Positions 7,516-43,738 of a stretch of 44,389 nt of DNA are shown in pieces. The position numbers and the translations under genes are program-made. The stretch is from Planctomycetota bacterium (lineage in GTDB: Bacteria; Planctomycetota; UBA1135), in NCBI GenBank assembly GCA_029941685.1, contig JAPYTC010000004.1:1-44389 (forward strand), given 5' to 3'. Within the stretch, counting starts at the first letter, position 1; each line of letters begins with the position of its first letter. Under the pieces are notes generated by a model. That model saw only the letters and a list, made by a program, of their open reading frames with translations. It searched no databases and was not told the DNA's origin.

Positions 7516-8550
7516 ATGAAACAAATACTAAGCATAACATTAGCTTTCGTCGGCATAGCTGTTTTCAGCTCTCCGGCATTTGGCGCGCTTCAATGATGAG
7601 GCGGCGGCGGCCCTCGCGGCGGCGCTGGTTACTCGGGTCCGGGTGACACATCAAATCCAGGAGGCGCAGGCCCTGCTGCTCCATCTACTCCTACCGGTGG
7701 CGGCGCTCCAGGCGCGCCTCCAACACCAGGTGGTGGCGCAGGTCCAATGACCCCCGCAGGTGGTGGCGCAGCAATGCCATTACCGCCGCACGGTCAAACG
7801 GCTAAAGATGTCATGAAGCTAAAGTGGGATTTTCCTACTCATAACATCTACAAGCGCGAAGAGGCCAAAGGTGCCAACGCAACTATTGCAACAAAAATAG
7901 AAGCTGCTCTTCCAGAGCAAGAAGCTTACTACACAATTGCAGGCGACGATCGCCGCCCGTTGCTAGTGCTTCGCGAATGTTTGTTATGTAACGGCACTGA
8001 TGACGCGTTACTTTCAAGTTATGAAAACAATGAAGCCGTCTTGATAGTTACTCGTTGGTTCCATTGCGTTAAGTTGCCTACAGACATTCTTAACGACGAG
8101 CATTCATTCCATACTTTGTTCGAGGGTGACCACCCGCCGCACTTATTCGTGTCGCGCTGGGATGGCAGTAATCCAATTGCATTGCGCGGAGATTTGTCTC
8201 GTAGCGAATTGTTGGGCAACATGTACGCAACCTTGAAGGCGGAATACAAAAAAGACGCAAAAAAGGCGGGCAAGGAAATAACTAAGCTCATGTATGTTTA
8301 CGACATGCTTGATGAAAAGATTCAACGTCTTGAAATCACAATCGACGACGAGCTAGAAAAACGTGGTCCTAAGTCTAAAAAGCTTAAGAAGTACCGCAGG
8401 CAGCTCGAAGACGCACAAAAAGCAATGGCAGCAGCTAAAGAAAAGGAAGCCGTGCTTTCTAACCTTCAGCTAAGGAACCCTGACGAAGCGCCAAACGCAC
8501 TAGAAGAACTTCTAGAGTCGCGCAAAAACGGCCTACCGGCTGGTCAGTAA
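7516..8550 (+). CDS. Secreted CxxC protein with a Gly/Pro linker; contains in-frame TGA-TGA at codons 27-28 (candidate Sec-Sec); the ORF track shows only 7747-8550
   Basis: ATG 7516 with AGGT 7 nt upstream encodes MKQILSITLAFVGIAVFSSPAFGALQ, then TGA TGA (7594-7599), then the open frame GGGGPRGGAGYSGPGDTSNPGG..., continuous with ORF 7747. ECLLC lies at about 7975-7989. The C-terminus looks coiled-coil. Confidence 0.7.
7628..7647 (+). promoter_or_regulatory. Candidate bacterial SECIS hairpin
   Basis: GTTACTCG-GGTC-CGGGTGAC: 8-bp stem with 2 GU pairs and a GGUC loop starting 36 nt after the second TGA. Confidence 0.5.
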
Positions 8551-8568
8551 ATTTATTACAATTAGGGA

Positions 8569-9807
8569 ATGACTCGTCACTCCCTAATTGTACGTCTCTC
8601 TCTTTCGTGCCTAGCATTAGTCCTATGCACTTCATTTGTTAGTGCACAAAAGAGTAAAGACGACGACAAAGACAATAAATATAAAGAAGACCCATACACC
8701 GAAAATGTCGAAGATGTATGGCGTGCTGCTGGCTACGAAGTCATGGGAGATTTTGCTTGGGCCGATGGCCATGGTTCTATCAACATCGAAGATGCAGTTG
8801 GCGAAGAGCACCTAATCTTCATCGAGACAAAGCACTTCAAAATTGGCTGCTGCTTGCCAAATTACAAGATTTCTCGCGAAGACAAGATCGAGAAGAAAAA
8901 AATTGAAGACGAACTCAATGAGCTGCGTGAGATCATCCCCAATATTCCTAGACGAGTAAAGGTACTCGACAAATGGTTACGCTTGCACCTATTTGCGATG
9001 CGCGCCGAAAAACTTTACGCAAACATCCAAAGCATTCTGCAGATTAGCGACGACGACTTCCCTACCGGGCCTGGCCAATTAAAAGATGGCAAGTATATGG
9101 GCGAAGGTCCTTATCTAGGCATGAAGTCTAAATTTACTCTTTTGTTCTTTGATAAAGAAAGTAGCATCGGTCGATACCGTACTGCTTTTATGGGACAAAC
9201 TGGTATTGTGCCTATTCGTCATTTGTTCCCGAATGATGACACTCTGCTATATGCATGTGCCGCGCAAAATGATGGTCTTGCTTCTGACACGACCATGCAC
9301 TGCGCGATGGTTTACGCAGTGACGCAAAATCTACTTAATGGTTTCCGCCATTACAGTCATGCGATGCCAGTTTGGTTGCCGTTAGGCCTCGCGCACTCGC
9401 TGGCGCGTGATATTGACCAAAAGCGGAATTACTTTACCGACAAACGCCTCTATGACTCAGAAGACAAGAATATCTGGAAATGGGACACCAAAACGCGCAA
9501 GCGGGTCGACTACGACATTGCAGTAACTTATGATGAAATGACCACGTGGAGAAATTCTTCCGCACTGGCTTACAATGACCACGTTATGGCTTGGGCGAAG
9601 GTTGACTACCTGTTAAATGAGCACCCTGACTGGGTTGCACAGTGGCTGTACCGCATGCAAGACAGCTATGCCGGAACACTTGCCCCCTCACCAGAGCAGC
9701 AAGCAACGCGCGATAAAGAACTCGTAGCAGAAATTTTTGTCTTCGACCAAGGTGATTTCGAATCGAATTGGCAAAAATGGGTTAAAAAGAATTATAAGAA
9801 AAAATAG
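8569..9807 (+). CDS. Secreted hypothetical protein
   Basis: Signal peptide ending VSA-Q; 412-aa ORF 18 nt after the previous gene, with AGGG just upstream. Confidence 0.8.
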   Translation: MTRHSLIVRLSLSCLALVLCTSFVSAQKSKDDDKDNKYKEDPYTENVEDVWRAAGYEVMGDFAWADGHGSINIEDAVGEEHLIFIETKHFKIGCCLPNYKISREDKIEKKKIEDELNELREIIPNIPRRVKVLDKWLRLHLFAMRAEKLYANIQSILQISDDDFPTGPGQLKDGKYMGEGPYLGMKSKFTLLFFDKESSIGRYRTAFMGQTGIVPIRHLFPNDDTLLYACAAQNDGLASDTTMHCAMVYAVTQNLLNGFRHYSHAMPVWLPLGLAHSLARDIDQKRNYFTDKRLYDSEDKNIWKWDTKTRKRVDYDIAVTYDEMTTWRNSSALAYNDHVMAWAKVDYLLNEHPDWVAQWLYRMQDSYAGTLAPSPEQQATRDKELVAEIFVFDQGDFESNWQKWVKKNYKKK

Positions 9808-9871
9808 CGGTTTTTACTTTAGTAAAAGGCTCTAGAGCCGCTGATGTGTGTGAGGAAATCCTCATCACATC

Positions 9872-11815
9872 ATGCGTCTCCAAAAATCCCTCTTAATCGT
9901 ACTGCTAGCTTCTTTACTTGCAGCCTGTGGGGCCGCCGGTGAAGATTCGCCTAATGGCCCGTCAAATGGTGGAGATGATCGAGGTGCCGGCGGCGGAGGT
10001 GCTGATGAGCCAGCCTACGAGCCAGAGCCGCCCCCAGGAACGGCGACTTTTTACGTAAATCACAATAGCGGCGCGAATGACGTACCGCCTGGAAACACTG
10101 CCAAGGGCTTTGCTAGTTCGCACAGTTCGGAAGGTCTCATGCTCGAATTAGCTAACACCGGTGCTGCTGGTGGCCTTCTACGCCACAATTTGCATATCAA
10201 CGCCCCGCGCGGCAACGTGCCTACTTCGTTGATGGAAGGAGAACAAATCGGCCTAAAGACATGGGTCACTGTTATGGGCACGCCATTAAATCAGTCGCCG
10301 TCAACAGACGGTGAGATATACGACTCGAGCCTGCCACCCTACGCACGGTGGACACCAATGAGCGCCGACGTTTGGGCTAACACGGTCATCACTCAGCTAG
10401 AGCATTACGAATCTTTCTATGGTTTCGTGCCGGACTGTGTTGAAATCTGGAATGAACCCGATCGTGTTGAATTTTATAACGGCGACATCGATGATTACTT
10501 GAAACTATATACTGTGACTGCACCGAAAATAAAAAATCGCTGGCCACAAATTCATATTGGCGGGATGGGGCTTGCGGGATATCGATCGAGCATGGGCGGC
10601 TCCGAATCTGCGATTCTCGCATTGATAGACCACGCAGCGGCCAACAACCTCCCGTTAGATTTCGTGTCATGGCATCACTACACAATCGGCAACGGCTTGC
10701 AGTACTCAGGCTTCTTGGAGGATTTGCAACTGCGCTTGGACAGCTACAGTATGTCAAATGTACAACTGGTGGTATCGGAATGGAACATCTACCCATCAAC
10801 AAGTGGACACGGAACCGAATTCGATAGCTCACATAGTGCTGCGAACTACGCTGGATTCCAAACCACCGCTCGCGAACTAGGATTGGACGGCAACAGTATG
10901 TTCTTGCTCCAAGATCCTTCAACAGGCAGTGGAGCCATTGACGACTTTACAGGAAACGGAATGGGTGCGATTACCACACATGGCATCAAGAAACCTGTAT
11001 TTCATGTTATAGAAACAGTCCAGGCAATGGCGGATGAACCGATGCTAACTACAGTGCGCCCCGACGAGGAGCTTAGCGTTAATGTTTATGCAACCAAAAT
11101 GGGCAATCGTGTGCGCTACGTTGTCAGCAATGATGTTGTGCCTGGGGACTGGGTATGGGCGAACCGTTTACGTGATGAGGGGTTAGCTCCAGGTTATTTG
11201 TGGCCCCTTTACTACCACGCCGCAAAGATAGGTCGGCCACATAAACCAACGGACACCGAATTGCTTGCAGAAGGCATGACTACTGCAGAAGTCACTGCGA
11301 TTAGGGACCTAGAAGACGAGTTGAATTTAGCATGGCAGTTTAAAGACGAGAACCGCCCTGTTGAAATAATCTTTGGGGGCAACGAATTGCCGAATATCGC
11401 AAACGTGCATCGCTTCGATAGCCAGCACAACAACTTCGTCGATCATATTGACGAGATCATGCCTTTCTTAGAACAAACCGAAGAAAATGCAAAATGGTTT
11501 GCCTTGCAAGCCGCGGCCGACTACTTTTTCTCACACGGCATCGTGGTCAGTCCTGAAGATTTGTCTAATTACGCTGACATGCATGAGTGGGCAATAGAAA
11601 ACGATGTCCCATACAACATCGCTAGTGCTTCGATAACAATCTACCAAAAAGCGATGGCGGAAGGGCGGTTGTTCGATGTGGGATTATTGAATAGCTTGCC
11701 ACAAATGAGTGTCACACCAATGACTGCAGAAAATGCAGAAGTTATCGCTGCTTCCGGCTCGGTCCACTTCTTTATGGAGCCGAACTCTGTTGTCATCTTT
11801 GACATATATCTATAA
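9872..11815 (+). CDS. Glycoside hydrolase family 39-like lipoprotein
   Basis: Lipobox LAAC; clan GH-A motifs EIWNEPD, DFVSWHHY and VSEWN; GIKKPVF. Confidence 0.78.
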   Translation: MRLQKSLLIVLLASLLAACGAAGEDSPNGPSNGGDDRGAGGGGADEPAYEPEPPPGTATFYVNHNSGANDVPPGNTAKGFASSHSSEGLMLELANTGAAGGLLRHNLHINAPRGNVPTSLMEGEQIGLKTWVTVMGTPLNQSPSTDGEIYDSSLPPYARWTPMSADVWANTVITQLEHYESFYGFVPDCVEIWNEPDRVEFYNGDIDDYLKLYTVTAPKIKNRWPQIHIGGMGLAGYRSSMGGSESAILALIDHAAANNLPLDFVSWHHYTIGNGLQYSGFLEDLQLRLDSYSMSNVQLVVSEWNIYPSTSGHGTEFDSSHSAANYAGFQTTARELGLDGNSMFLLQDPSTGSGAIDDFTGNGMGAITTHGIKKPVFHVIETVQAMADEPMLTTVRPDEELSVNVYATKMGNRVRYVVSNDVVPGDWVWANRLRDEGLAPGYLWPLYYHAAKIGRPHKPTDTELLAEGMTTAEVTAIRDLEDELNLAWQFKDENRPVEIIFGGNELPNIANVHRFDSQHNNFVDHIDEIMPFLEQTEENAKWFALQAAADYFFSHGIVVSPEDLSNYADMHEWAIENDVPYNIASASITIYQKAMAEGRLFDVGLLNSLPQMSVTPMTAENAEVIAASGSVHFFMEPNSVVIFDIYL

Positions 11816-12310
11816 TCAATCGGCGGTGTAATACCAAACACCGCGTTGCCCTTGGGTTTCTTCAACCGCCATACGCATCGAATGAACCTCCACATCGGAG
11901 AAGTTCAGCTGCAATTTTTCGAGTAACCGGCGGCCAATGTATGTCGCTAAGTTTTCTGCAGAAGTGTTGTTAACCGGCAAAACGATAACGTCTTCTCTGG
12001 GTGCGGCATAATAACGTTCGCGATAACGTACTTCGATGACATCATCTTCACGGATGTTACATGTTAGCTCGTGATGCTCTCCGGGTATCAACCAACGCTC
12101 GTCTAAAGCATCTACGATCTCACGGATTAACGGTTTAACTTGTGTGAAGTCAATGACTAATCCGTACTGCGACAAGCTACCGGACACTTCGCAGTACACA
12201 CGGTAGTTGTGTCCGTGCAAACGTTCGGCGGTGCCATCAGGAAATATCAAAAAGTGCGCCGCAGAGAACTTTAAATATTCTTTCTTGATTTCGATTGACC
12301 AGCGTTCCAT
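11816..12310 (-). CDS. queD: 6-pyruvoyl-tetrahydropterin synthase / QueD family
   Basis: FSAAHF, ERLHGHNY, VIDF and TSAENLA motifs. Confidence 0.85.
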   Translation of the reverse strand: MERWSIEIKKEYLKFSAAHFLIFPDGTAERLHGHNYRVYCEVSGSLSQYGLVIDFTQVKPLIREIVDALDERWLIPGEHHELTCNIREDDVIEVRYRERYYAAPREDVIVLPVNNTSAENLATYIGRRLLEKLQLNFSDVEVHSMRMAVEETQGQRGVWYYTAD

Positions 12311-12313
12311 TTT

Positions 12314-13138: not shown

Positions 13139-13176
13139 GCCCTAATTGTAGCCTCGCGCAGGATTACAATATAGCT

Positions 13177-14207: not shown

Positions 14208-15916
14208 TGACTACTACCCCGCCACTTCACGGCCTCGACACCTTTGCCTTGACAATTCGTCAAGCAGTGTCTTCTGCCATCGACGTCAAGATTGATTTAA
14301 TTTCGCTAGAGCGCCCACGCCAAGAAAGCTTAGGTGAATTTGCATTGCCATGTTTTCGCTTCGCCAAGCAGGCGAAATTAGCGCCTCCAGCTTTAGCGTC
14401 TAAGCTTGCCGACGAACTTGCTATCGAAAATGTTAACTGCGAAGCAGTGGGGCCGTTTTTGAACTTTCGAATCGATGCTAACTCGTTAGCGCGGTCGATT
14501 GTAACTTCAGCACAAAACGACAACTATGCAGGAGATAACCAAGACTTGACCACCTTGGTTGAGTTCTCTTCGCCAAACATCGCAAAGCCAATGCATATTG
14601 GCCATATGCGGACTACTGTAATCGGTGCAGCTCTCAGTCGTATTTACTCACACCTCGGTCATGATGTAAAACGCATTAACCACCTCGGTGATTGGGGCTC
14701 TCAATTTGGCAAATTAGTTGCAGCGTGGCAGCGCTGGGGTTCTGAAGACAAGCTCAACGAACTACCTATTGCACATTTGCTCGAGCTATACGTGCGTTAC
14801 CACGAAGAAGAAAAAAACGACAAAACTTTAGCTGTCGATGCAAAAAAATATTTTCAACAGCTAGAATCCGGGGAGGACAATCAAACACGAGCCACCTGGA
14901 AGCAATTCACTGCGCTATCTCTAACCGAATTTGACAAAGTCTATGCACGCTTTGGCATTGAGTTTGATTATGTGCGCGGCGAATCATGGTACGAAGATCA
15001 ACTCGACGACATGATTACTTGGCTTGACGAATGCGGTGTTACCGAATTGTCCGATGGCGCAACCATTGTTAATCTTGAAGAACAAGGGATTAAAACTCCC
15101 AGCTTAGTAAAGACGGCGCACGGCACGACTCTTTATGCCACGCGCGACTTAGCAGCTGCAAAGTCTCGCTGGGAGGAATTCAAGTTTGATCATTCTTTGT
15201 ATGTAGTTGGCGCCGAGCAAACGCTTCATTTTCAACAATTAAAGGCCGTATTGTCGCGATGTGGTGTTGAATGGGAAAAACGTATGGAGCATATTCCGTT
15301 TGGACTGATTCGTCTTACCGAAGGCAAGTTGTCTACACGCGAAGGACGAGTAATCGCACTCGTGGATGTGCTCAATCGCTCAGTCGAATTAGCTGCTAAG
15401 TCTATTGAACAAAAAAACCCCGATTTGCCGAACAAAGAGACCGTCGCCGAACAAGTTGGCTTGGGCGCGATTGTGTTCCACGATCTCAAGCACCAACGTC
15501 AAAAAGATGTGGTGTTTGACTGGAAAGAAGTTTTGTCTTTCGAAGGCGATACCGGCCCTTACCTGCAATACACCCATGCACGCTGCTGTTCTATTTTACG
15601 CCGCGCCGAAAAAGATGTGCCGCAGCTTGACGACATTGATTTTTCAGTGCTCGAAGGGGGGCGCGAATTATGGGTAGCCATCGGACGTCTCCCGCAGGCT
15701 GTCCGCGAGGCTGCTGCAAAACGCGAACCCATGTTGATTGCAAATGCTCTGCTTAAAGTTGCAGCTGCCGGTAATGGGTTTTATCGTGACAATCAAGTGT
15801 TGGGCACTAACGACGACAATCTAGAAAAAGCACGCTTAGTTGCGATTGACACGTTGCGCAAAACCTTAGCGCTGGGCATGAAATTACTTGGCGTTCCGAC
15901 TCCGCAAGAAATGTAA
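14207..15916 (+). CDS. argS: Arginine--tRNA ligase
   Basis: EFSSPNIAKPMHIGH, NHLGDWG, KLSTR and GDTGPYLQY motifs. Confidence 0.97.
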   Translation: MTTTPPLHGLDTFALTIRQAVSSAIDVKIDLISLERPRQESLGEFALPCFRFAKQAKLAPPALASKLADELAIENVNCEAVGPFLNFRIDANSLARSIVTSAQNDNYAGDNQDLTTLVEFSSPNIAKPMHIGHMRTTVIGAALSRIYSHLGHDVKRINHLGDWGSQFGKLVAAWQRWGSEDKLNELPIAHLLELYVRYHEEEKNDKTLAVDAKKYFQQLESGEDNQTRATWKQFTALSLTEFDKVYARFGIEFDYVRGESWYEDQLDDMITWLDECGVTELSDGATIVNLEEQGIKTPSLVKTAHGTTLYATRDLAAAKSRWEEFKFDHSLYVVGAEQTLHFQQLKAVLSRCGVEWEKRMEHIPFGLIRLTEGKLSTREGRVIALVDVLNRSVELAAKSIEQKNPDLPNKETVAEQVGLGAIVFHDLKHQRQKDVVFDWKEVLSFEGDTGPYLQYTHARCCSILRRAEKDVPQLDDIDFSVLEGGRELWVAIGRLPQAVREAAAKREPMLIANALLKVAAAGNGFYRDNQVLGTNDDNLEKARLVAIDTLRKTLALGMKLLGVPTPQEM

Positions 15917-15917
15917 T

Positions 15918-16439
15918 ATGGCAATCGACCTAAACAAATTTATCCGCGACATTCCCGATTACCCTAAACCGGGTATTATCTTCAAAGACATCACCCCGCT
16001 GTTGCAAGATGCTGATGCACTGCGCCAATCGATTCTAGACATGGCCGTCATCGCTAAACGATATGACGTCACGCACATCGCTGGCATTGAATCACGCGGA
16101 TTTATTTTTGGTACTGCCCTCGCTGTCGAACTGGGTTTAGGGTTTTTACCGATTCGCAAGCCAGGCAAGCTACCCTGGAAAACCTTCGCCGAGGCTTACG
16201 AGCTTGAATACGGTAGCGACAAGCTAGAGATTCATGTTGACGCCTCTGCTGCTGGCGAGCGCGTGTTGCTAATTGACGATTTGTTAGCAACTGGCGGAAC
16301 TGCCGAAGCTTCTGTCAAGCTCATTCGCCATACAGGCGCCGAAGTTATGGCGTGCTGCGTGCTGCTCGAGCTAGAATTCTTGCACGGGCGCGAAAAGCTG
16401 CACGGTGTGCCGATGCATTCATTGATAAAAATTAAGTGA
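15918..16439 (+). CDS. apt: Adenine phosphoribosyltransferase
   Basis: PDYPKPGIIFKDITPLL, ESRGF, RKPGKLP and IDDLLATGGT motifs. Confidence 0.97.
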   Translation: MAIDLNKFIRDIPDYPKPGIIFKDITPLLQDADALRQSILDMAVIAKRYDVTHIAGIESRGFIFGTALAVELGLGFLPIRKPGKLPWKTFAEAYELEYGSDKLEIHVDASAAGERVLLIDDLLATGGTAEASVKLIRHTGAEVMACCVLLELEFLHGREKLHGVPMHSLIKIK

Positions 16440-17265: not shown

Positions 17266-18037
17266 ACGGTTACATGCCAAATTGCCTGCGCGGCGGTTAT
17301 TTGCCCGCAACATTGAAATCGTTGAACAGTGCCAATCAACCAACGACGAATTAAAAGAGCGCATTGCTGCAGGCGAAAATGTTAGCAATACTTTATTGGT
17401 AGCAAACGACCAACAATCTGGACGCGGACGCTCAGCGCGCGATTGGTGGTCGGGAGATGCGGGCGACAATTTATGTTTCAGCTTAGGATTGAGAAATGAA
17501 AACATGGCACCACACATTGTTGGCTTGGTCGGAGCCGTCGCATTAGCTGATGTTTGTCAGCAGCTGTTGCCAAATGAGCGGCTTGCCATTAAATGGCCCA
17601 ATGACATACTGCTCAATGGCTCAAAACTGGCCGGGTTTTTATGTGAGCTTCCAGCTGGTGGCGACACACTCATTCTAGGGCTAGGGGTGAACGTAAACAC
17701 TAAACCACCCTCCGATGAGGTCCCCTATTCGGTTGCTTGCCTGAACGAGCACAATCTCAAGATTACTCCACTAGAATTACTGGCACTAGTCATGCACCGC
17801 TTCGAATCACTGATAGTGCGTTATCAGCGCCACGGCAGCAGCGATTTTGAAGATGGCTTTCTGAATTATTTACAATTATGGGCGCCAAATGGTGTAAGAA
17901 ATCCTACTAACCAAAAGGCGGGCGCGTTGTTAAAATTTTCGGTCGCAAATGGCTTAACCCTCGATGTTGACGGCGAACAGTTCACCCAAGCGATGGAAGC
18001 CATTAATTGCCTCGAAAAGATTAATAATGTCACGTAA
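17240..18037 (+). CDS. birA: Biotin--[acetyl-CoA carboxylase] ligase, no HTH domain
   Basis: STN, QQSGRGR, IKWPND, KLAG and GLGVNV motifs. Exact start uncertain. Confidence 0.9.
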   Translation: MMLTSSRLKRLHAKLPARRLFARNIEIVEQCQSTNDELKERIAAGENVSNTLLVANDQQSGRGRSARDWWSGDAGDNLCFSLGLRNENMAPHIVGLVGAVALADVCQQLLPNERLAIKWPNDILLNGSKLAGFLCELPAGGDTLILGLGVNVNTKPPSDEVPYSVACLNEHNLKITPLELLALVMHRFESLIVRYQRHGSSDFEDGFLNYLQLWAPNGVRNPTNQKAGALLKFSVANGLTLDVDGEQFTQAMEAINCLEKINNVT

Positions 18038-18752
18038 CGACTCTCGTACTCCTACCGACTTACGCCCGCTTAAATTCAGGCGCAAGTTTACCAATCACCC
18101 TGCTGGCTCAGTTTTAGTAGAAGCTGGTCAAACCCGTGTTTTATGCACGGTGACAGTCACCGATAGTGTGCCACGTTGGCGCCAAGGTTCTGGCAAGGGT
18201 TGGCTGACGGCCGAATACGCGATGCTACCTGGCTCAGTCGTTGGCCGCAAACAACGCGAACACAATCATCGCGATGGGCGCTCAGTCGAAATCCAACGCT
18301 TGATTGGTCGTGCTCTACGCGCTGCTGTTGACATGCGATCTTTTCCGAATGTCACCCTGCAAGTTGATTGCGATGTGTTGCAAGCCGACGGTGGCACCCG
18401 CTGCGCTGCAGTTTGCGGTGCGATGATGGCGCTTCACGATGCTGCTCATTACTTAAACGATAATGACAAGCTAAAGTCATGGCCTATCAAAAACTGGATT
18501 GCGGCTGTTTCTGTTGGTCATGTTGGCGGCCGTTCGCTACTCGATTTAGATTACAGCGAAGATTCAACCGCTGACGTCGACATGAATGTCATTGCCACTG
18601 AAAACAATGAGATTATTGAAGTGCAAGGCACTGCCGAGGGCTCACCGTTTTCTTTAGACACTCATCACGAGTTGTTAACGCTTGCCATGCAGGGCACCGG
18701 CGACATTATCGCGCAAATGAAAGAAATCTCTGCCGAAAAAATCCAAGCATGA
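18027..18752 (+). CDS. rph: Ribonuclease PH
   Basis: GWLTAEYAMLP, EIQRLIGRALR, DVLQADGGTRCA and EVQGTAE motifs. Confidence 0.97.
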   Translation: MSRNDSRTPTDLRPLKFRRKFTNHPAGSVLVEAGQTRVLCTVTVTDSVPRWRQGSGKGWLTAEYAMLPGSVVGRKQREHNHRDGRSVEIQRLIGRALRAAVDMRSFPNVTLQVDCDVLQADGGTRCAAVCGAMMALHDAAHYLNDNDKLKSWPIKNWIAAVSVGHVGGRSLLDLDYSEDSTADVDMNVIATENNEIIEVQGTAEGSPFSLDTHHELLTLAMQGTGDIIAQMKEISAEKIQA

Positions 18753-25091: not shown

Positions 25092-26087
25092 TCAGCAGTG
25101 ATAGTCGGCCAATAAAGCCTCAACCAAATACTGGCGCCGAATTAAATCTTCATCGATAGCAACCGAAGCGCGGGAATCTTTTATTAGGTTCACGCGCTTT
25201 AAGAATTGGTGCAAGCTTTGCTCCATAGGGTCGCCAATACTCACTGCGTCTTGTGCCTCATCAGCATGTGCAGCAAATTGCATTTGATAGTTTGCGCCGA
25301 TTATACGGTGACACAATTTGTCATCAATGGAGTACTCTGCAGGTGATGGGAACACACCAATATCTTCAAGGATAATCTCGCACTGTAACACGCGAGAATG
25401 GGTGCAATACTCAAAGCGCAATGCCGAATCAGGCGAATCTTTCGCGCGTTCGGTGTACTCAACTTTCTTTAGATACGCAGGCCCCGGGGATATTCTTTGA
25501 ATTAAGCTTAATGGGTGCGATAGCACCTCCTGCCAGCGTTTTTTCCCACGCAGTTTCGGCGACAACAGCATCGAAAACTTTCGCGCCTGCGACATATCGT
25601 GCTGCGGGTGTAGCTGATGCCACGCCTCTAAGGTGAATGGCCATTGGCAGTTTTCACTAATCAGCAACTCGTTTGCACTAAAGTTAAGAATTAAATCGTC
25701 GCAATGTTTTGCGCCAGACACGCACAACGGCTTTTCACAAAACACATGCGCATGAGAATCTAAACACTGCTGAATCCAGTCAATATGTGTGGTAGTTGGC
25801 GAAGCAATAATTACTGCTTCGGGATTGGTCTCAGCCAACATGTCTTCCTCTTCGGCATATACCTCTGGACGCAAGCCGCTGCCCAGCAATTCTTCGCTAG
25901 CTGCACGAGCTGAGTCGTAACTCCCACCAACAATTGCCACCACCTCGGCGCCGGCAGCATGGGCTTGCAGCGCCAATAATCCACCTGTGCCCATATTGGT
26001 GCGCCGCGCACCAACAATCGCCACCCGCAAACCATTAGCTATTGCTTGGGGTTTGCCCGGAGTTGGCTGAGAAGATGGCGACGTCAT
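25092..26087 (-). CDS. Gfo/Idh/MocA family oxidoreductase
   Basis: Rossmann N-terminus, IASPTTTH and HVFCEKP. Confidence 0.85.
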   Translation of the reverse strand: MTSPSSQPTPGKPQAIANGLRVAIVGARRTNMGTGGLLALQAHAAGAEVVAIVGGSYDSARAASEELLGSGLRPEVYAEEEDMLAETNPEAVIIASPTTTHIDWIQQCLDSHAHVFCEKPLCVSGAKHCDDLILNFSANELLISENCQWPFTLEAWHQLHPQHDMSQARKFSMLLSPKLRGKKRWQEVLSHPLSLIQRISPGPAYLKKVEYTERAKDSPDSALRFEYCTHSRVLQCEIILEDIGVFPSPAEYSIDDKLCHRIIGANYQMQFAAHADEAQDAVSIGDPMEQSLHQFLKRVNLIKDSRASVAIDEDLIRRQYLVEALLADYHC

Positions 26088-26117: not shown

Positions 26118-27104
26118 ATGCCTGCGTCACCTCCATCATCTTTAATGGTGCGTTTGCCGAATCCTCTCGGCGACGCCGTGATGGCATTGCCGCTACTTTC
26201 TAATATTAAACAACGCTTTCCTGACTGTCGCCTAAGCCTGGTAGGTAATCCAGAATATGAATCTTTATTCAGTGGTCTAAGCCATATAGACCAATTCGTT
26301 GCTCTTGATAATTCGCTTAGCATCGCCGAGCAATCCAAAATTTTAGAAGAGCAGCAATGCGACACAATTATTTTGTGCCCCAACTCGTGGTCGTCCGCAT
26401 TGGTTGCGCGGAAGGCCGGAATCAAGCAACGCATCGGTCGCACTAAACATTTGCGCTCGTTTCTGCTCACTCATTCTTTGCCAGCGATTGACAAACCGCG
26501 CTTAATGCCAGAACTGTATTGTGAATTAATTACTGCATTCGGCGTTGGCTTCTCTGTTGACCCAGCATATTTGCCTGCGCCCGAAATTGCAGTCAGTTGG
26601 GCGCCGCCAAAACTGGGATACTTCATGGTGGCACCTGGTGCCGCATTTGGTTCTAGCAAACAATACCCCGCACACTTAATGGCTACGGCCCTGAACGGAA
26701 TTCATGCAAAACACCAATTGTTGCCGGTGCTTTTTGGAGCGCCTAGCGAACATCAATCGCTAATTGAATTGTCGAAACTGCTCGATCATCCATTCATTGT
26801 CGCTAAACAATATGCTGACTTCAACGAAATCAAACACGTGATGAAAAAAGCAAGTTTCGTGTTATCTATGGATAGCGGTGCACGCCACATTGCAGTCGCA
26901 GTCGGCACTCCACAACTTGCAATCTTCGGCCCTACTGACCCAAGTTGGACTGCACACGCCATGGACGGCGCGGTATTCGTCGCAAATGACAAGCTTGATT
27001 GTCTTGGCTGTCACCACAAAACCTGTCCGCTCAAAGGTCACCCTTGCATGAATGACCTAGACCCGCAAATCATTATCGATGCCAGCTCAAGATTTATCGC
27101 CTAG
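26118..27104 (+). CDS. GT9 glycosyltransferase, LPS heptosyltransferase II (WaaF)-like
   Basis: LGDAVM, APGAAFGSSK, DSGARH and IFGPT motifs; C-terminal C..C....CP....C. Confidence 0.88.
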   Translation: MPASPPSSLMVRLPNPLGDAVMALPLLSNIKQRFPDCRLSLVGNPEYESLFSGLSHIDQFVALDNSLSIAEQSKILEEQQCDTIILCPNSWSSALVARKAGIKQRIGRTKHLRSFLLTHSLPAIDKPRLMPELYCELITAFGVGFSVDPAYLPAPEIAVSWAPPKLGYFMVAPGAAFGSSKQYPAHLMATALNGIHAKHQLLPVLFGAPSEHQSLIELSKLLDHPFIVAKQYADFNEIKHVMKKASFVLSMDSGARHIAVAVGTPQLAIFGPTDPSWTAHAMDGAVFVANDKLDCLGCHHKTCPLKGHPCMNDLDPQIIIDASSRFIA

Positions 27105-28179
27105 CAACGAAATATTGTTTACCGAGGCGCATTCGACTTGGTCGCAGTTATTGAGTGATATTGCAGAGTCAAGTCAAAGCATATTGTTTGAGAACTACAT
27201 TTGGAATGACGGCGCCGCAAGTGATGCCTTGCTCGTAGCCATGCGCAACGCAAAATCCAATGGAGCGGACATCACTATTCATCTTGATGCTATTGGGTCA
27301 TTTCACGCGTCGAGTCAATTACTCTCCGAAATATCAAAAATCGCAAAACTAGTGATTTATAACAAGCCGCGTTTCGAGTTTCTTTATTCGCGATTCGTCA
27401 ATAGCGTAATGCGACGTACTCATCGTCGCATCATCGTTTGTGACGACAAAAATGCTTGGGTTGGCGGCTTAGCTATCGATGATTTCTGGTGGCATGAAAA
27501 CATAAATCCATGCCGTGAATCTATGCTACGAGTGAGCGGCGCTATCTGCCACGAACTTAGACGGATTTTTTTCAATCTCGAGGCCAAAGTGGAGCATCGC
27601 AATTCAATTACTCTTAAACCACTAAGCGCTAACAGCGCTCGCGTATGCAACTTTAGTCCCTTTGGGCGTCCAACTTTTTTGCGGCTGTTACTACAACGAA
27701 TCGGTCGCGCACAAAACTCTATACACATAGCTACTGCTTATTTTATTCCGCCGCGCAAACTTCGCCGCGCCTTAATTAAGGCGCGACAACGTGGGGTCGA
27801 AGTGTATCTACAACTGCCTTCTGCAAAGTTACATGACCATCCAATGGTGAGAATGGCGGCACGCCGTCACTACGCGAAATTACTGAAACGCGGTGTAGTG
27901 ATTTATGAATACACCCAGAGCTTTCAGCATAGCAAAACGGCATTATTTGACAACTGTGACTGCCTAGTCGGGTCACCAAACATTGACCGCTGGTCATTCT
28001 TCAGGAATCACGAACTTTTAATTGAAAGCACTGATCCTAGTTTATGTGAACAGCTCAAACAGTCCTTTGACGCTGACATGCGCCGCTCGGTGCAGATTGA
28101 TCCGCAACTCTGGGAGAGACGCAGCACCAAAACCCGTTTACTCGAGAACTTCGCCGGAATTTTTGACCCCATTTTATGA
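27079..28179 (+). CDS. Phospholipase D family cardiolipin synthase (ClsB-like)
   Basis: Two HKD-type motifs (HRRIIVCD and HSKTALFD..GSPNID); TAYFIP. Confidence 0.85.
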   Translation: MPAQDLSPSNEILFTEAHSTWSQLLSDIAESSQSILFENYIWNDGAASDALLVAMRNAKSNGADITIHLDAIGSFHASSQLLSEISKIAKLVIYNKPRFEFLYSRFVNSVMRRTHRRIIVCDDKNAWVGGLAIDDFWWHENINPCRESMLRVSGAICHELRRIFFNLEAKVEHRNSITLKPLSANSARVCNFSPFGRPTFLRLLLQRIGRAQNSIHIATAYFIPPRKLRRALIKARQRGVEVYLQLPSAKLHDHPMVRMAARRHYAKLLKRGVVIYEYTQSFQHSKTALFDNCDCLVGSPNIDRWSFFRNHELLIESTDPSLCEQLKQSFDADMRRSVQIDPQLWERRSTKTRLLENFAGIFDPIL

Positions 28180-31753: not shown

Positions 31754-32152
31754 TTATACCTCAACAGCAGCGTAACCGGTAAATGGTACGCGGTTTTGCA
31801 GACGGCGTACGCCAGTGATTGGATCTTCGCGCTCTTCTGGGCGCACTTCGACGATGGCTTCGATATCTGACAGCTCGTCAGGCGAAATTTGCAATTCGCC
31901 ATCTGCAGCAATACCAAGAACCTGTAGCACAAACTTTACGCGCGGCAACCCCCGCTCAGACCAGTGAAGGCTGTCCCAGCAGGCGGTACGCCCCTGAAAC
32001 TCGCCTTTTGTAACTTCCCAGCGGATACCCCAACGTGTGTGACCTGCTGGAGATAGACTTTCGCGTACTTCAGCCACTTTGCAGTGGTAGTCGCCCGGAG
32101 GCACAGAACGCATGTCTTCGATGTTTTCAATTGTAGAGAGATTTATCTTCAT
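31754..32152 (-). CDS. DUF669 family protein (similar to phage ssDNA-binding proteins)
   Basis: From ATG 32152: VPPGDYHCKV.EV....S..G...W...GEFQGR..WD.L...N.V pattern. The track's longer start (32398) overlaps the divergent gene. Confidence 0.75.
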   Translation of the reverse strand: MKINLSTIENIEDMRSVPPGDYHCKVAEVRESLSPAGHTRWGIRWEVTKGEFQGRTACWDSLHWSERGLPRVKFVLQVLGIAADGELQISPDELSDIEAIVEVRPEEREDPITGVRRLQNRVPFTGYAAVEV

Positions 32153-32207
32153 GTTACCCTGTAGACGGACAGTGTATATCATCGACACTTCTTTTATACT
32201 GCACCCC

Positions 32208-34292
32208 ATGATGAACCGCTTCGTCCTTAGTCTCACACGATCTGTTTGCCTTAAGCAAATAACCCTACTATTGTTTTTTGCAATTTCTTCGGTGTCTATT
32301 TCGGCACAGCAAGAAGTTACCCACAATAAAATTGATACCAAAGGCCCATTCGAGTATTTACTAGAGCCTGAAGTTGGCCCAGGAACATTCGATTTCATCG
32401 ACGAAGGCGCCGGAACTGTAGTGGGTGTCCTTGGCGCAGTAATGTTTTACGACCTCGGTGCTGATTACTACGATTTCGAAAAAAGTATCTCATCATCAGG
32501 CACAACAGCGGCCGAACTCGCTGCGATAGTTGACCGCATCAATAAGCTAAATGGCAAGGATGCCACAAGCGTTGATTACGACTTAATGTGGCCACTGATT
32601 GAAGAGCTACGCAACACGGCACAAGCTAGTTTTGCTGCATCAAAGGATACTATCCATGAACTGCTTCAAGAATGCGCAGCAGAGGCAGACTTCACTCTAG
32701 AAGAAGCGGTCGAACTAACTCTAACCATACCCACTGGGTTTGCGATTGGCAGCATCAACCTTGACTCAGACGAGTTAAAGAGCAAAACGACAAACGATCT
32801 GCAAAACATTTTTGCCAAAGCCGTAAACGAAATCGTTGAAGGGGAAAAGCTCAAGCTCAGCATAAAGTTTTCGGACGACGCGGATACCGCCACGCTTAAG
32901 GTAACCAGACACGGTGTACCCATTGTGGTGTTATGGTTAGTGCTCGGCGCCATCTTCTTCACCTTCCGCATGGGTTTCATTAACCTGCGTGGCCTAGGGC
33001 ACTCAATAAAAGTTGTAAGCGGCCGCTTTACCAACCCTAACTCACACGGCATTGGCGAAGTCACCCACTTCCAAGCACTAGCATCAGCGTTATCGGCAAC
33101 GGTAGGACTCGGTAACATCGCTGGCGTTGCAATTGCGGTTTCAATGGGCGGGCCCGGTGCAATCTTTTGGATGGTGGTGGCCGGATTCCTCGGCATGTCG
33201 TCCAAATTCGTTGAATGTACTTTGGGTCAAAAATACCGCGAAGTACGGCCAAACGGTGAAGTGATGGGTGGTGCGATGTTCTACCTATCCAAAGGCCTCA
33301 AAGAAATGAAGATGCCTATCTTGGGCAAAGTCCTAGCAGTCATGTTCGCGGTGCTTTGTATCGGTGGTTCTTTCGGCGGCGGCAATACCTTTCAGGTAAA
33401 TCAATCGCTAAATGCGATCCAAGAGACCGTGCCTTTCTTCGGCGAGCATCGCTGGGTTTACGGCTTAATCATGACTATCGTGGTAGGTGTGGTCATCATC
33501 GGCGGCATCAAACGTATCGCTTCGACCGCTGAAAAAATCGTGCCGGCCATGTGCGGAGTCTACGTTGCTGCGTGTTTAGCCGTGTTGTTCAACAATTTTG
33601 ATCAGATTCTGCCGGCATTCAGCACCATCTGGGATAGCGCCATTAACCCCGACGCCGCTTACGGTGGATTTATCGGCGTACTCGTCATGGGGTTCAAACG
33701 AGCGGCTTTCTCTAACGAAGCTGGCGTTGGTTCGGCCGCCATCGCGCACTCGGCAGCGAAAACGGATTACCCGGTTCGTGAAGGTATCGTGGCTTTGCTC
33801 GAACCATTCATTGACACGATTATTGTTTGTACGATGACCGGTTTGGTAATAGTCATTACTGGCGCTTACGACGCAACCACTATGGTTGACGGCGTCGCCG
33901 TTTATGCACCATACCTAACAGACGCAAACGGTGCCGGCTTAACCTCGCAAGCATTTGCTAGCCAATTCAGTTGGTTCCCAATGATTCTCGGTGTCGCCGT
34001 TGCTCTCTTCGCCTTCTCAACCATGATCTCATGGTCATACTACGGCGAACGGTGCTGGGCTTACCTCTTCGGTGACAACGCCTCGATGTCTTACAAGATT
34101 ACTTTCTTGACCTTCACGTTTTTAGGTTCGGTAATTACATCAAAAAATGTTTTGGACTTCGGCGACTTAATGATTCTCGGCATGGCTTTCCCCAACGTGT
34201 TAGGTGTCGTGTTGTTGTCCGGAAAAGTTAAACGCGATCTAAATACTTACTGGAAGCTCTTGAAATCAGGTGCCTTTAAAGAGTACAAATAA
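32208..34292 (+). CDS. Alanine/glycine:cation symporter (AGCS) with a signal-like N-terminus and a large loop insertion
   Basis: FQALASALSATVGLGNIAGVA, GGPGAIFWM, FSNEAGVGSA, EPFIDTIIVCTMT and FSTMISWSYYG motifs. Confidence 0.93.
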   Translation: MMNRFVLSLTRSVCLKQITLLLFFAISSVSISAQQEVTHNKIDTKGPFEYLLEPEVGPGTFDFIDEGAGTVVGVLGAVMFYDLGADYYDFEKSISSSGTTAAELAAIVDRINKLNGKDATSVDYDLMWPLIEELRNTAQASFAASKDTIHELLQECAAEADFTLEEAVELTLTIPTGFAIGSINLDSDELKSKTTNDLQNIFAKAVNEIVEGEKLKLSIKFSDDADTATLKVTRHGVPIVVLWLVLGAIFFTFRMGFINLRGLGHSIKVVSGRFTNPNSHGIGEVTHFQALASALSATVGLGNIAGVAIAVSMGGPGAIFWMVVAGFLGMSSKFVECTLGQKYREVRPNGEVMGGAMFYLSKGLKEMKMPILGKVLAVMFAVLCIGGSFGGGNTFQVNQSLNAIQETVPFFGEHRWVYGLIMTIVVGVVIIGGIKRIASTAEKIVPAMCGVYVAACLAVLFNNFDQILPAFSTIWDSAINPDAAYGGFIGVLVMGFKRAAFSNEAGVGSAAIAHSAAKTDYPVREGIVALLEPFIDTIIVCTMTGLVIVITGAYDATTMVDGVAVYAPYLTDANGAGLTSQAFASQFSWFPMILGVAVALFAFSTMISWSYYGERCWAYLFGDNASMSYKITFLTFTFLGSVITSKNVLDFGDLMILGMAFPNVLGVVLLSGKVKRDLNTYWKLLKSGAFKEYK

Positions 34293-35705: not shown

Positions 35706-35803
35706 AAATGATAGTATCTCTGTAACACAACTCAAATAACATTCGGCTGTTTATTATTTATTTAGAAAATAGATACGCAAAAGCTACTTCCTATTGAGCG
35801 CGA

Positions 35804-36076
35804 CTATTCTAGGCCTTGCTTATTTTCTACGGCTACTTCGTGCTCGCGGTCGCCCTGAGAACCGGCGCGACGGGATTCTAAGTTACGCAACATCGCAATT
35901 TTTCCGTAAACAATGATCTCGTCGCCATCAGCGCTAATCGCCGTACCCTTCGTCACCGAGACGTAAATCCATTAGCGAGCGATTGAGCATCCAGTCGAGT
36001 GAAGCGCCACTGTGCTAATACGCACAATGAATAACGACAGAGACAATACCATCAGGACGGCGATGAGGGACATCAT
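35804..36076 (-). pseudogene. Fragmented relic of a TrkA-C (RCK-C) domain membrane protein
   Basis: Three collinear fragments: MMSLIAVLMVLSLSLFIVRISTVALHSTG / DWMLNRSLMDLRLGDEG (shifted frame) / TAISADGDEIIVYG...RRAGSQGDREHEVAVE. Family assignment is from recalled sequence similarity, not a search. Confidence 0.65.
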
Positions 36077-36100
36077 GTTAGGTATGGTAAACTCCCCGCG

Positions 36101-40387: not shown

Positions 40388-40471
40388 TGCTTATTACGGT
40401 TATTGGCGGGGACCAATGTCCTCGATTATACCTTATCGGCTATCAGGGGGAAAAGACTGCATTAATCTTAT

Positions 40472-43400
40472 CTAAAAATCAGAGCGGCCTTCCCATTCGA
40501 GGATGGTCTGCTTTAGCTTGGAGTAAGTGGGCACATAAAAATCGGCGAACACCACGCGTCCTTGGTCGTCAATGACGATTGTGGTTGGGGTGATTTGCGA
40601 AGCTGGGAGGTCTTCGTATTTTTCGGTGATAATTCGATCTTGCTCGATTTTAAAAGCATCTATGTCGTCGTCGGTGCGATCGCTCAACATGATGTACGCG
40701 GGCTTGTAAACCTTCGCGTATTTCTCCATGTCACTTTTGCTATCACCCAACATGCCGCCGGCATTATTAAAGCCAAGAACTTGTAGCTCGGCGTCATCGA
40801 AATGCAAACTAATCGCATCGATCAGCGGAGATGCTGCCTTGCATGAGGTGCATGTAGAGAACCAAGTTGTAAACATTCGATATTTCGCCTTGGTGTGAGG
40901 CTTACTCATATCTAGAAACAACTTACTGACTTTAGCGTCGTCATGAGTTTTGGTGGTTAGTGTTTCTTGAGCAATTCCTTTACTGACTTTAGCAATCGAA
41001 CTTACTGAGTAACCACTGCCATTCGGCGAATCAGCAGGATTTTCGTAAACAGTAATCAATTGTCCCGGCAACGCCTCAGCCACAACAGTAGTCGCGCCCT
41101 TTGGCCATTGCACAATAAAGCTTGCGGATTCGTTTGCACCAATACCTATCGGCATGGTGCGCGAATTCTGCGCCGCCAATCCTTCGCCACAACGCAACTC
41201 ACGACTGATGTTTAAATCACCAGACTTCAGCAAAACTTTAGCGCCAATACCATCGCGCGCGCCCCACTTATCCGAAGCGGACGCAGTCTTATTGCCTCCT
41301 TCCAAACGAATATAAATCGGCTGATAGGTGGTCTCTGCTGGCATCAAATCGCCAATCTTGTTCCGGTATAACTGAACGTACGGGCGGTTACCGCTGACAA
41401 GGACGAAGTCTTGGTAACCATCGCGGTCGTAGTCGAATAGCGCAATGGCACGCGCATCACCCTTGTGGTCAGCACCCGAAATGCCTGACTGTGTCGAGAA
41501 TTCTTTACCACCGATGTTCAACCAAAAGTGGTTAGGCTCGCTACCCGAAAATGATGCGCCCGAACCGACTTGACCTGGGTCAATGACAACACCAACATCT
41601 TTCCCTTGTTTGATATTTGCATTTTTGTCTCCGCGAACCACGGAGCGCCAAAAATCACTTCACAAATCAACATTGCGTTTTTGATCTTGCGGTGCGGTGT
41701 AATACCCCGCTGGGCCGTACAAGTCGAGATAGCCATCGTTATTAAAGTCAGCAAATTGCGCACCCCATCCCCAGCCACCAAACTCGGTTGAATGCATCGC
41801 TTCGCCCTCAGCAGAGACTTTGGACCACTCGCCATTATCGTTGTTGTGGTACATTGAGTTACCACGTCCAAGTTGCTCGAATAGCGGGTCGATACCCTCA
41901 CCATTAAGCAAGTCGGCGTCGTAATTGACGCGACCTGGCGTGAAGAATGATGTTACGCGGCGTGCTGCTTTCGAAAACATGTTCGTCACGTATAAATCTT
42001 GCAGGCCATCGTTGTCGTAATCACCAAATGCAACACCCATGCCGAAACCTACGTCAGCGACATTCGCCTCTTCGGTAATATCGGTAAATTTACCTCCTCC
42101 ATCATTACGAATTAGGTAATTCGGCGCAAAGTCGTTTGCTGAGTAGAAGTCGAAGTCTCCATCGTTGTCGATATCACTCCACGTGGTCTGGAAAGTATTG
42201 TGAAAAATCCGCAACGCATCTGGCAGAACATGCTCTTCGAATTTGCCATTACCTGTATTGCGTAACAACAAATTAGGTGGCCCCGGACGACTACGGTACA
42301 ACGTCGACCCCTCAGCAGTCTCCACATAAAGCGGCATCAGTTTGTTGAAATCTTCTTCGCGCATAAAAGCCTTCAGCTCATTCACTGCGAAGTCGGTTGT
42401 GGTCATGATCTGCTCATCGCCTTCACCGGATGACTTCACCGCAGCATCGCCTTGCAACGCCTTAATCGCGCGCTGTGCGAAGTAAGCAGCATATGTCGAA
42501 ATGTAAATGTCGTTAAGACCATCGCCATCGAAATCAACCACAGTTGCACCACCCGTGTTGAATGGCAGGTTGTCTTCGGCGATCCAATCACCAGAACGAT
42601 TTACAAAATGGCCATCAACGTTCTCCATGATGATGCTGCGTCGCAGTGAGCCACCGATGAAAACATCTTTGTCACCATCGTTATCAAAGTCAGAGAACAT
42701 CGCAGACGAAGTCTGGCCGTTGAAATCTAAACCTAACTCGCGGCCGATTTCTTTAAATGTTCCATTGCCGTTGTTATGAAAGAACAAGTTGCGGCCATGA
42801 CGCTCTTGCACGTAAAAATCGTCGAAGCCATCGTCATCGAGGTCGACAATCGAAACTGTAGGGTGACGTTCGCCGGCCGCTACCTGCCACTGTGGATATG
42901 GCTTTTCGAATTTTTTGCCTGCCTTGCGTGACTTTAAGAACTCGCGCACTTGGTTTTCGTGAATAGATTGACGTGCGAGCTCGAGGTCGTCGGTGTTCTC
43001 AATCACGTTGTCGAGCACTTCTTCGAATAACCAATCATCTGTTTCGATAGTAGTAAGCGAATTGATTTTCCACGACACAATTTTCCAGACTTGCTTTCCA
43101 GGATCAATCTCGTCACGCGTTGATAGGTCGTGTTCCCAGATGACGTCTTGCCAACCTTTTATTTCAGCAAGGCGGCCATTTTTCATCTTAGCCTTGGCTG
43201 TGAATTTAAAACCCACTTGCCATTGAGTCATCGTTTCGGGATCGATCCAACGTGGCACAGGTAAGTTAACTTTAAACTCGGCAAACTTAAAGTAATCTAC
43301 TTCGGCAAACAGGCTGCTGTACAAATTGAACTCTGACCAGTCTTTAGTCCCAGCTGGAGCTTCATCGGCACCGTTGTAAAAAGTGGCAACCTGCTCGCTG

Positions 43401-43738
43401 AGGTTCCAGTGGCGCTTGCCTGCTGTACCCCCATTCATTACGGTGTCATACTCAGGGAAGAGCTCGACGATGCCGCTGAATTCAAATGTCTCGGCAAAAT
43501 ATTTTGCACAGCCATTGTCGGGAAACTTTTTACCTTGCAGTGCTTCGGCTAGCCCATCTAGGTAACCCGTTTTTCCCCAAGCAATATGCAGTGCCTCAGA
43601 GCGTGTCATACGCTCTGTTTGAATCTCCATTGGTGTCGTTGGAGCCTTTCTTTTAGGCTCATCATTGCATGTTGCAAATGTCATCGCCACCAAGAAGGCA
43701 AGCAACAACGGGGAGTAGTTTCGGGGTGATTTACTCAT
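40472..43738 (-). CDS. FG-GAP/VCBS beta-propeller + ASPIC/UnbV + C-terminal thioredoxin-like (CxxC) protein, probable lipoprotein; in-frame TGA at codon 693 (candidate selenocysteine); split into two ORFs in the track
   Basis: ORFs 43738-41660 and 41641-40472 share a frame and join as ...RNVDL-TGA-SDFWRSVVRG.... Six DxDxDG-type repeats precede the TGA and a seventh follows it. Lipobox-like FATC; WFSTCTSC near the C-terminus. Confidence 0.82.
41621..41655 (-). promoter_or_regulatory. Bacterial SECIS-like stem-loop
   Basis: Minus strand: TGA AGTG ATTTTTG GCG CTCCGTG GTT CGCGGAG A CAAAAAT. 7-bp lower stem, internal loop, 7-bp upper stem, and a G(G)UU apical loop about 20 nt from the UGA. Confidence 0.75.

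Follow-up and report, generated by a model that had tools for sequence, protein, structure and literature searches.

Two UGA-interrupted genes of a marine planctomycete as probable genes for exported selenoproteins, one with adjacent selenocysteines

Two genes of a marine member of the Planctomycetota raise the question of how a UGA codon inside an otherwise open reading frame (ORF) should be understood. Both lie in a 44,389-nt stretch of DNA, hereafter the window, from Planctomycetota bacterium (lineage UBA1135; GenBank assembly GCA_029941685.1, contig JAPYTC010000004.1, positions 1 to 44,389 of the forward strand), which is contig C4 of a metagenome-assembled genome (MAG) comprising 299 contigs and 2.0 Mb, and estimated to be 83% complete. 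Gene 1 would encode a thioredoxin-like protein and gene 2 a propeller lipoprotein resembling CRTAC1, and each is interrupted by TGA. A preliminary description of the window, made from its letters alone, had suggested that the two genes point to an unannotated set of extracytoplasmic selenoproteins. The insertion of selenocysteine (Sec) is in itself textbook knowledge, and it is the reading that we favor here. Both genes are very probably intact genes for exported selenoproteins, in which SelB and tRNA-Sec would decode UGA as Sec under the direction of a hairpin lying just 3' of it in the coding sequence, and they belong to a genome whose selenoproteins appear to be mostly exported.

The two interrupted genes and the reading of UGA

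As in other bacteria that insert Sec by means of SelB and a selenocysteine insertion sequence (SECIS), tRNA-Sec, SelA, SelB and SelD are all encoded in this genome. The search for tRNA-Sec and SelB that the preliminary description had proposed as a check recovered both. tRNA-Sec was detected by ARAGORN and by the Rfam model RF01852 (74.7 bits, cut-off 47), SelB scored 297.8 bits (cut-off 242) and SelA 413.4 bits, and all of these, as well as SelD, stand above curated cut-offs. The SelD gene itself carries an in-frame TGA of the Sec type at codon 16; it shares one short contig and one strand with SelA (G000:C180:66-3532), and the two possibly form one operon. SelB exceeds its cut-off in 38 of the 41 genomes sampled from the order, and therefore no phyletic contrast can be drawn between the presence of SelB and the TGA forms of the two genes.

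A first alternative is that UGA is a sense codon throughout this genome, read as Trp or Gly (genetic code tables 4 or 25). Nothing beyond the open frames themselves speaks for it, and we consider it extremely improbable. In the window, the genes described earlier as apt, rph, queD, the Gfo/Idh/MocA gene and cls each contain a Pfam domain that is complete before a terminal TGA, as had been stated (Table 1). Genome-wide, of the 1539 long coding ORFs, 889 terminate in TAA, 377 in TAG and 273 in TGA. The sole UGA-reading tRNA found is tRNA-Sec, while the anticodon of tRNA-Trp is CCA, and the residues aligned with the UGA codons in homologs of gene 1 are neither Trp nor Gly. In addition, four of the 14 TGA-joined gene pairs found by the genome scan described below are not single proteins (three are unrelated neighbors and one has no Pfam match). 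The claim that recoding is site-specific is thus borne out by the five window genes and by the genome-wide use of TGA as a stop.

Both interrupted genes were read as single frames by translating TGA as U, and export signals, whether signal-peptide-like or lipoprotein-like, were judged by eye throughout. The frame of gene 1 then runs from a signal peptide through Sec-Sec and a Gly/Pro-rich linker to a thioredoxin-like CxxC domain and a helical hairpin. The export signal and the separate CxxC of the preliminary description are both present, and the interruption is real; it consists, however, of two adjacent TGA codons (27 and 28), where a single one had been reported. The two Cys columns of the CxxC are invariant in all 18 aligned sequences. 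In a structural model (mean predicted local distance difference test score, pLDDT, 68.6), residues 1-88 are disordered, residues 134-243 form a beta-alpha-beta core whose first strand is immediately followed by the CxxC, and a long helical hairpin comes next. A fold search against the PDB gave thioredoxins as the best matches, although weakly (E 0.02-0.1), and the protein matches neither Pfam nor any NCBIfam model.

If the UGA codons were genuine stops, gene 1 would yield a 26-residue peptide and a separately started downstream protein. The Gly/Pro-rich stretch that follows them contains 49 codons without ATG, GTG or TTG, and yet it evolves under constraint. Against the ortholog in genome G002 (dS about 1.3), the ratio of nonsynonymous to synonymous substitution (dN/dS) was 0.149 in the signal peptide, 0.079 in the linker and 0.065 in the domain. 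Low ratios upstream and downstream of the TGA codons indicate that both sides are therefore translated in the same frame.

The relatives of gene 1 also argue against termination. A match to it is held by 34 of 41 related genomes, and among the listed matches that start at or before query residue 19, all 26 keep TGA (nine have two and 17 have one) and none has TAA or TAG at the site. Their translations place TGA immediately behind the signal peptide (PQ-U-U or PQ-U-C). In a wider survey of Planctomycetota MAGs with one genome per species, 189 stretches encoding the family were found and 79 loci were kept. Their 69 distinct N-termini comprise 39 with UU, 22 with UC, three with CU and five other forms with a single U; beyond these, two loci are uncertain and five lack U, namely four incomplete loci and L092, and L092 and L093 are Cys-only. 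Read from the codons, predicted adjacent Sec-Sec is the commonest state of the family. The second position is thus U or C, a Sec/Cys swap that is the classical signature of selenoproteins. Furthermore, in the Cys-only and UC forms a continuous ORF extends from signal peptide to domain, which is difficult to reconcile with two separately made products.

Gene 2 likewise shows an export signal, which is lipoprotein-like, an in-frame TGA at codon 693, a hairpin downstream of it (loop GUU) and a separate CxxC (residues 963-966). Its orthologs have clear lipobox-like endings before the Cys that closes the signal. Pfam recognizes FG-GAP_3 (131.3 bits) and UnbV_ASPIC (32.2 bits) in the protein; the AhpC-TSA match of its C-terminal domain, at 23.9 bits, falls under the cut-off of 26, while paralogs reach 27.8 and 27.0, and no NCBIfam model matches. 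The structural model is of higher confidence (pLDDT 84.1, predicted template modelling (TM) score 0.85), except for a loop at about residues 689-691, and its best fold match in the PDB is murine CRTAC1 (9etn_A, E 2.7e-21, TM score 0.68 on the target).

Among the 71 listed matches that span residue 693, 56 have one TGA, one has two and 14 have none, and not one has TAA or TAG at this site. The Sec column, in the context DL-U-S.FWR, was verified in 22 genes, including the two paralogs of this genome (on contigs C20 and C73). Thus, in both families, dozens of genes hold TGA but never TAA or TAG in these columns, contrary to what is expected of ordinary stops. Genuine termination would moreover divide gene 2 into a 692-aa propeller fragment and a 389-aa protein starting at a GTG six codons further on, although its homologs without Sec are single proteins of 935-1111 aa. 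The 692-aa N-terminal piece stands alone in the databases as a 'VCBS repeat-containing protein', which confirms that gene callers do split this gene, as the preliminary description had anticipated.

The C-terminal CxxC of the second family is kept in all 14 Sec forms and in one Cys form, and its first Cys is lost in all three Glu forms; this small sample suggests that Sec693 and the CxxC may be functionally connected. Outside the Planctomycetota, database homologs with Acidobacteriota titles (P0026-P0047) carry an FG-GAP and UnbV_ASPIC propeller fused to TPR and AhpC/TSA or Redoxin domains, without Sec; the fusion of a propeller with a thiol oxidoreductase therefore recurs beyond this phylum.

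Table 1. Positions of the features of the window that are discussed in the text, with the basis of each assignment.
Feature	Position	Strand	Basis or remark
Gene 1, exported selenoprotein (predicted)	7516..8550	+	single frame of 344 codons with TGA = U
Gene 1, signal-peptide-like N-terminus, codons 1-26	7516..7593	+	by eye; same layout in orthologs
Gene 1, adjacent UGA codons 27 and 28, read as Sec-Sec	7594..7599	+	sequence; family conservation
Gene 1, hairpin, 8 bp, loop GGUC, sole SECIS-like element 3' of the UGAs	7628..7647	+	folding, -10.0 kcal/mol
Gene 1, CxxC (C155, C158), immediately following strand 1 of the thioredoxin-like core	7978..7989	+	alignment; secondary structure of the model
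Conserved partner gene, 412 aa, signal-peptide-like N-terminus	8569..9807	+	neighborhood comparison
PTPS/queD, ordinary gene ending in TGA	11816..12310	-	Pfam domain ends before stop
Phosphoribosyltransferase, ordinary gene ending in TGA	15888..16439	+	Pfam domain ends before stop
RNase PH, ordinary gene ending in TGA	17964..18752	+	Pfam domain ends before stop
GFO_IDH_MocA, ordinary gene ending in TGA	25092..26087	-	Pfam domain ends before stop
PLDc_2, ordinary gene ending in TGA	27079..28179	+	Pfam domain ends before stop
Gene 2, CRTAC1-like FG-GAP/UnbV_ASPIC propeller lipoprotein	40472..43738	-	one frame of 1088 codons with TGA = U
Gene 2, CxxC (C963, C966) in C-terminal AhpC/TSA-like domain	40841..40852	-	alignment
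Gene 2, SECIS-like hairpin, 7 bp, loop GUU, loop start 21 nt after UGA	41629..41645	-	folding, -8.9 kcal/mol
Gene 2, UGA codon 693, read as Sec	41660..41662	-	conservation in orthologs and paralogs
Gene 2, lipoprotein-type signal, residues 1-24, ending in Cys	43667..43738	-	by eye

SECIS-like hairpins downstream of the UGA codons

Hairpins were counted as SECIS-like when the stem had at least five contiguous pairs, at least three of them G-C, and the loop comprised 3-8 nt, contained GU and started 12-45 nt from the U of the UGA; the background was estimated from mononucleotide shuffles, 200 per set. The hairpin 3' of the TGA codons of gene 1 is found as it had been described, with GGU in its loop, and five of 200 shuffles fold as well. 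For the hairpin of gene 2, five of 200 shuffles are as good, and it satisfies all four constraints of the published bSECIS model (PMC13188914); as in known bacterial systems, a G followed by either G or U opens its small apical loop. Rfam gives no match at gathering score in the window, and around both UGA sites only chance-level matches are obtained.

The evidence from the two families is stronger than that from the single genes. A GU-loop hairpin is present in 58 of the 69 members of the first family (shuffled mean 20.0, maximum 29) and in all 22 TGA genes of the second (mean 2.2, maximum 6), as against two of seven of its non-TGA paralogs (mean 1.3, maximum 4). The hairpin therefore tracks TGA, which is not expected if the codon is a stop or is read through without SelB. 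In 36 sequences of the first family, covariation of a 7-bp stem reaches 0.343, compared with 0.148 in shuffled alignments, and none of 500 shuffles attains this value. The exact register is not fixed by these data, as the stem slid by one position scores above the chosen one (77.8% versus 66.7% paired). RNAalifold returns only a 4-bp consensus for the same 36 sequences (-1.64 kcal/mol), because runs of G and C allow the register to slip.

In most members of the first family, the G of the loop lies 22-28 nt from the first UGA. It is at 25 nt in 16 of 33 UU genes and at 28 nt in nine, and in UC genes it is at 22 nt in seven of 20 and at 25 nt in 11. Such spacings fit a single hairpin that would serve both UGA codons if about 3 nt of slack is allowed. 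A GU-loop hairpin is also formed by the bases that encode a peptide motif invariant in the family, Y-x-G-P-G-D (for example in L089, L097, L103 and L107; 7628-7647 in the window), and in loci with a short linker the Y-x-G-P-G-D hairpin stands at the canonical SECIS distance; the motif may be conserved partly at the RNA level. In the second family, some paralogs with Glu or Asp in the Sec column (L141, L146 and others) keep short G+C hairpins at the same codons, which could be relics of an earlier SECIS or could simply follow from the codons for W-R-x-V.

Selenoproteins in the rest of the genome

A scan of coding potential, in which the sequences flanking each in-frame stop were given a hexamer score, was used to find further genes of this kind. 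The thresholds were a coding score above 0.1 on each side of the stop and a distance of at least five codons to any start downstream; the pairs that passed them comprised 14 joined by TGA, 20 by TAA and 11 by TAG. Ten of the 14 TGA-joined pairs are single proteins. In seven of these, a Pfam or NCBIfam model spans the TGA: one FdhA-like protein, SelD and five thioredoxin-like or redoxin-like proteins with UxxC, in which a Thioredoxin_2, Thioredoxin_7 or Redoxin domain extends across the UGA; the remaining three are the propeller genes. The TAA- and TAG-joined pairs had been proposed as a control, and 16 of the 31, those with at least 100 downstream codons, were tested, the other 15 having shorter tails. 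None of the 16 has a domain that spans the stop (in 13 the families upstream and downstream of it are unrelated, and in three a family is found on just one side), so that single proteins number ten of 14 for TGA and zero of 16 tested for TAA and TAG. Scanning for Cys motifs near in-frame stops at loose thresholds proved too noisy (79 TGA, 106 TAA and 42 TAG hits), and it revealed a SelW-like gene with CxxU. Gene 1 and this gene are missed by the thresholds of the first scan; with both added, there are 12 selenoprotein genes in 2.0 Mb.

Among the rejected TGA-joined candidates, C5, C185 and C190 are adjacent unrelated genes, C83 has no Pfam match, and C6 and C39 were dropped by eye. In an FtsH-like gene (G000:C96:4280, + strand), an in-frame TGA stands immediately ahead of the Walker A motif, where FtsH has Leu. 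It was not accepted as Sec, since it more probably reflects an error, a polymorphism or a pseudogene, and it shows that some TGA-joined pairs are not selenoproteins.

The FtsH-like case bears on a second alternative, in which the interruptions of genes 1 and 2 would be pseudogenizing mutations, or errors of sequencing or assembly in a fragmented MAG. The 299 contigs and the incompleteness of the genome also speak for this possibility. We nevertheless consider it very unlikely, because the same TGA codons are shared by independent assemblies at the levels of genus, family and order, purifying selection acts on either side of those in gene 1, and comparable split genes are absent from the 16 tested pairs joined by TAA or TAG.

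Eight of the 12 selenoprotein genes have signal-peptide-like or lipoprotein-like N-termini, and for a ninth (C73), which lacks its N-terminus in the assembly, export is suggested by its paralogs. The nine exported-looking products are those of gene 1, gene 2, the two propeller paralogs and the five UxxC thioredoxin/redoxin-like genes, whereas the FdhA-like, SelD and SelW-like proteins look cytoplasmic. Selenium would thus be used mostly outside the cytoplasm, and the term extracytoplasmic fits nine of the 12 genes but not the other three. Extrapolating the density of the window (two genes per 44 kb) to the whole genome would have implied about 90 selenoprotein genes, far more than the 12 found. 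The organism can still be called selenoprotein-rich, for this term is applied from at least six selenoproteins upwards by Zhang et al. 2006 (PMC1794560). The selenoprotein-rich organisms of that study are mostly Deltaproteobacteria and Clostridia, and those in the table rows considered here are anaerobic. Selenoproteins have been described in two planctomycetes (PMC4807772).

Several observations weigh against the reading of genes 1 and 2 as selenoprotein genes. The selenoprotein status of both products is a prediction from the genes, and their localization one from N-termini judged by eye. In gene 1 of the window, the proximal hairpin common to most relatives is degenerate, and the fold of the 67-nt region is no better than that of shuffles (z = -0.38). 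The loop of the remaining hairpin starts 39 nt from the first UGA and 36 nt from the second, compared with a mode of about 21 nt in the family; with respect to the published range of 16-37 nt (PMC13188914), the second spacing is just inside and the first just outside. In gene 2, the column of Sec693 tolerates many residues. Of 11 non-TGA paralog regions, seven could be aligned, with E, D, E, N, H, H and N in this column, and 37 aligned database homologs, chosen from 120 listed, have E in three cases, C in one (P0006), A in one, G in two, S in two and a gap in 28. Sec would thus not be replacing a conserved Cys, and the Sec/Cys criterion for gene 2 rests on one sequence. The three Glu forms that lack the first Cys of the CxxC are closely similar and possibly reflect a single evolutionary event, which weakens the link between Sec693 and the CxxC. 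Finally, taken by itself, the coding-score scan enriches TGA per gene end only about 2-fold, since same-frame neighbors dominate all three stop types, and it became decisive only once the pairs were checked with Pfam.

The lack of a SECIS at canonical distance in gene 1 of the window, the permissive Sec column of gene 2 and the GTG found six codons after its UGA are also what favors a third alternative, in which UGA terminates translation in both genes or is read through independently of SelB; in the latter variant, near-cognate decoding would insert an ordinary residue. Set against the exclusive use of TGA in these columns, the continuous frames of the relatives, the constraint on the start-free linker and the hairpins that accompany TGA, this alternative appears improbable, though it is the strongest of the three. 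The decoding of both genes by SelB and tRNA-Sec is accordingly retained as a well-supported, predicted mechanism.

Relation to known systems and possible function

The proposed mechanism is of the type known from the formate dehydrogenase of E. coli, in which an in-frame UGA is followed by a hairpin in the coding sequence (PMC13188914). It differs from this type in that the two adjacent UGA codons of the first family appear to share one hairpin, and in that the only hairpin of gene 1 in the window lies at the long spacings given above. Selenoproteins of the thioredoxin fold with UxxC (Prx-like, thiol:disulfide interchange, redoxin and TlpA-like proteins) are listed in Table 1 of PMC13188914, and the five other UxxC genes of this genome resemble them. 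Both window genes also carry a thioredoxin-like CxxC; unlike in UxxC selenoproteins, however, this motif is all-Cys and the predicted Sec stands outside the thioredoxin active site, at the mature N-terminus in gene 1 and within the beta-propeller in gene 2. The same table contains selenoproteins with neighboring Cys and Sec and possible metal binding (KCU-star, SaoC, MbdU and CopZ-like forms), and their domains and positions differ from those of genes 1 and 2. Gene 2 shares FG-GAP repeats, UnbV_ASPIC and the predicted fold with CRTAC1/ASPIC-UnbV propellers such as murine 9etn, from which it is distinguished by Sec, a lipoprotein signal, an extra N-terminal domain, a fused thioredoxin-like CxxC domain and the occurrence of several Sec paralogs per genome.

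The 2026 inventory of 119 prokaryotic selenoprotein families has, in its Table 1, no FG-GAP, VCBS or ASPIC entry and no UU motif (PMC13188914), and both window families are missing from that inventory and from NCBIfam. A literature search of incomplete coverage found no paper describing bacterial proteins with adjacent Sec or FG-GAP/CRTAC1 proteins that contain Sec, and only PMC4807772 was pertinent to the selenoproteins of Planctomycetota.

For gene 1, the mature N-terminus would carry two adjacent Sec residues, or Sec-Cys in relatives, on a Gly/Pro tether of about 65 residues that is disordered in the model and joined to the thioredoxin-like CxxC domain. Gene 2 would place one Sec between propeller blades, with its thioredoxin-like CxxC domain at the C-terminus. 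In both proteins the selenol may form an outward-facing redox or metal-binding center, and the CxxC of each protein may recycle it. Mammalian thioredoxin reductase has a terminal Cys-Sec redox pair on a flexible tail, and may serve as a working analogy for gene 1, with its presumed vicinal chalcogen pair, flexible terminal arm and adjoining dithiol center. The two proteins are not homologous, and in gene 1 the arm would be N-terminal, exported, often Sec-Sec, and attached to a thioredoxin fold instead of a flavoenzyme.

A more far-reaching proposal, which we regard as possible but rather doubtful, combines these elements. One hairpin with about 3 nt of slack would serve tandem UGA codons and so produce an N-terminal Sec-Sec capable of forming a diselenide; the flexible tether would act as a swinging arm for redox reactions or metal capture, recycled by the protein's own CxxC, and the neighboring 412-aa protein would be its client or partner. 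Together with the CRTAC1-like lipoproteins, in which Sec would have been recruited at a non-Cys site and coupled to the fused CxxC, this protein might constitute a periplasmic selenium redox system characteristic of the Planctomycetota.

These readings have consequences for annotation as well as for Sec biology. The public records examined annotate a truncated piece, and gene callers both undercount and split such genes in MAGs of Planctomycetota. As the predicted Sec of gene 2 stands at a position that is rarely Cys, the standard search strategy based on Sec/Cys pairs would miss the propeller family. The frequency of predicted Sec-Sec in the first family bears on how strictly SelB/SECIS spacing is kept in bacteria, and a streamlined marine planctomycete of about 2 Mb would place most of its selenoproteins outside the cytoplasm.

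The 412-aa gene directly downstream of gene 1 is a conserved companion, as its homolog adjoins a homolog of gene 1 in 91 of 98 loci across the Planctomycetota. Its product belongs to no Pfam family, and in the Atlas it finds hypothetical proteins of Planctomycetota only, plus a weak lead to DUF1570/Peptidase_MA_2. Upstream of gene 1 lies a sulfatase-domain gene (5400-7463, + strand), which is the neighbor in just 21 of 98 loci and is therefore considered to be local to the lineage and outside the conserved pair. ARAGORN also reports a tRNA-Pyl (anticodon CTA) at 33675-33751 on the + strand, within a long ORF (32112-34292); no Rfam tRNA model reaches its gathering score in the window, and the call is most likely a false positive.

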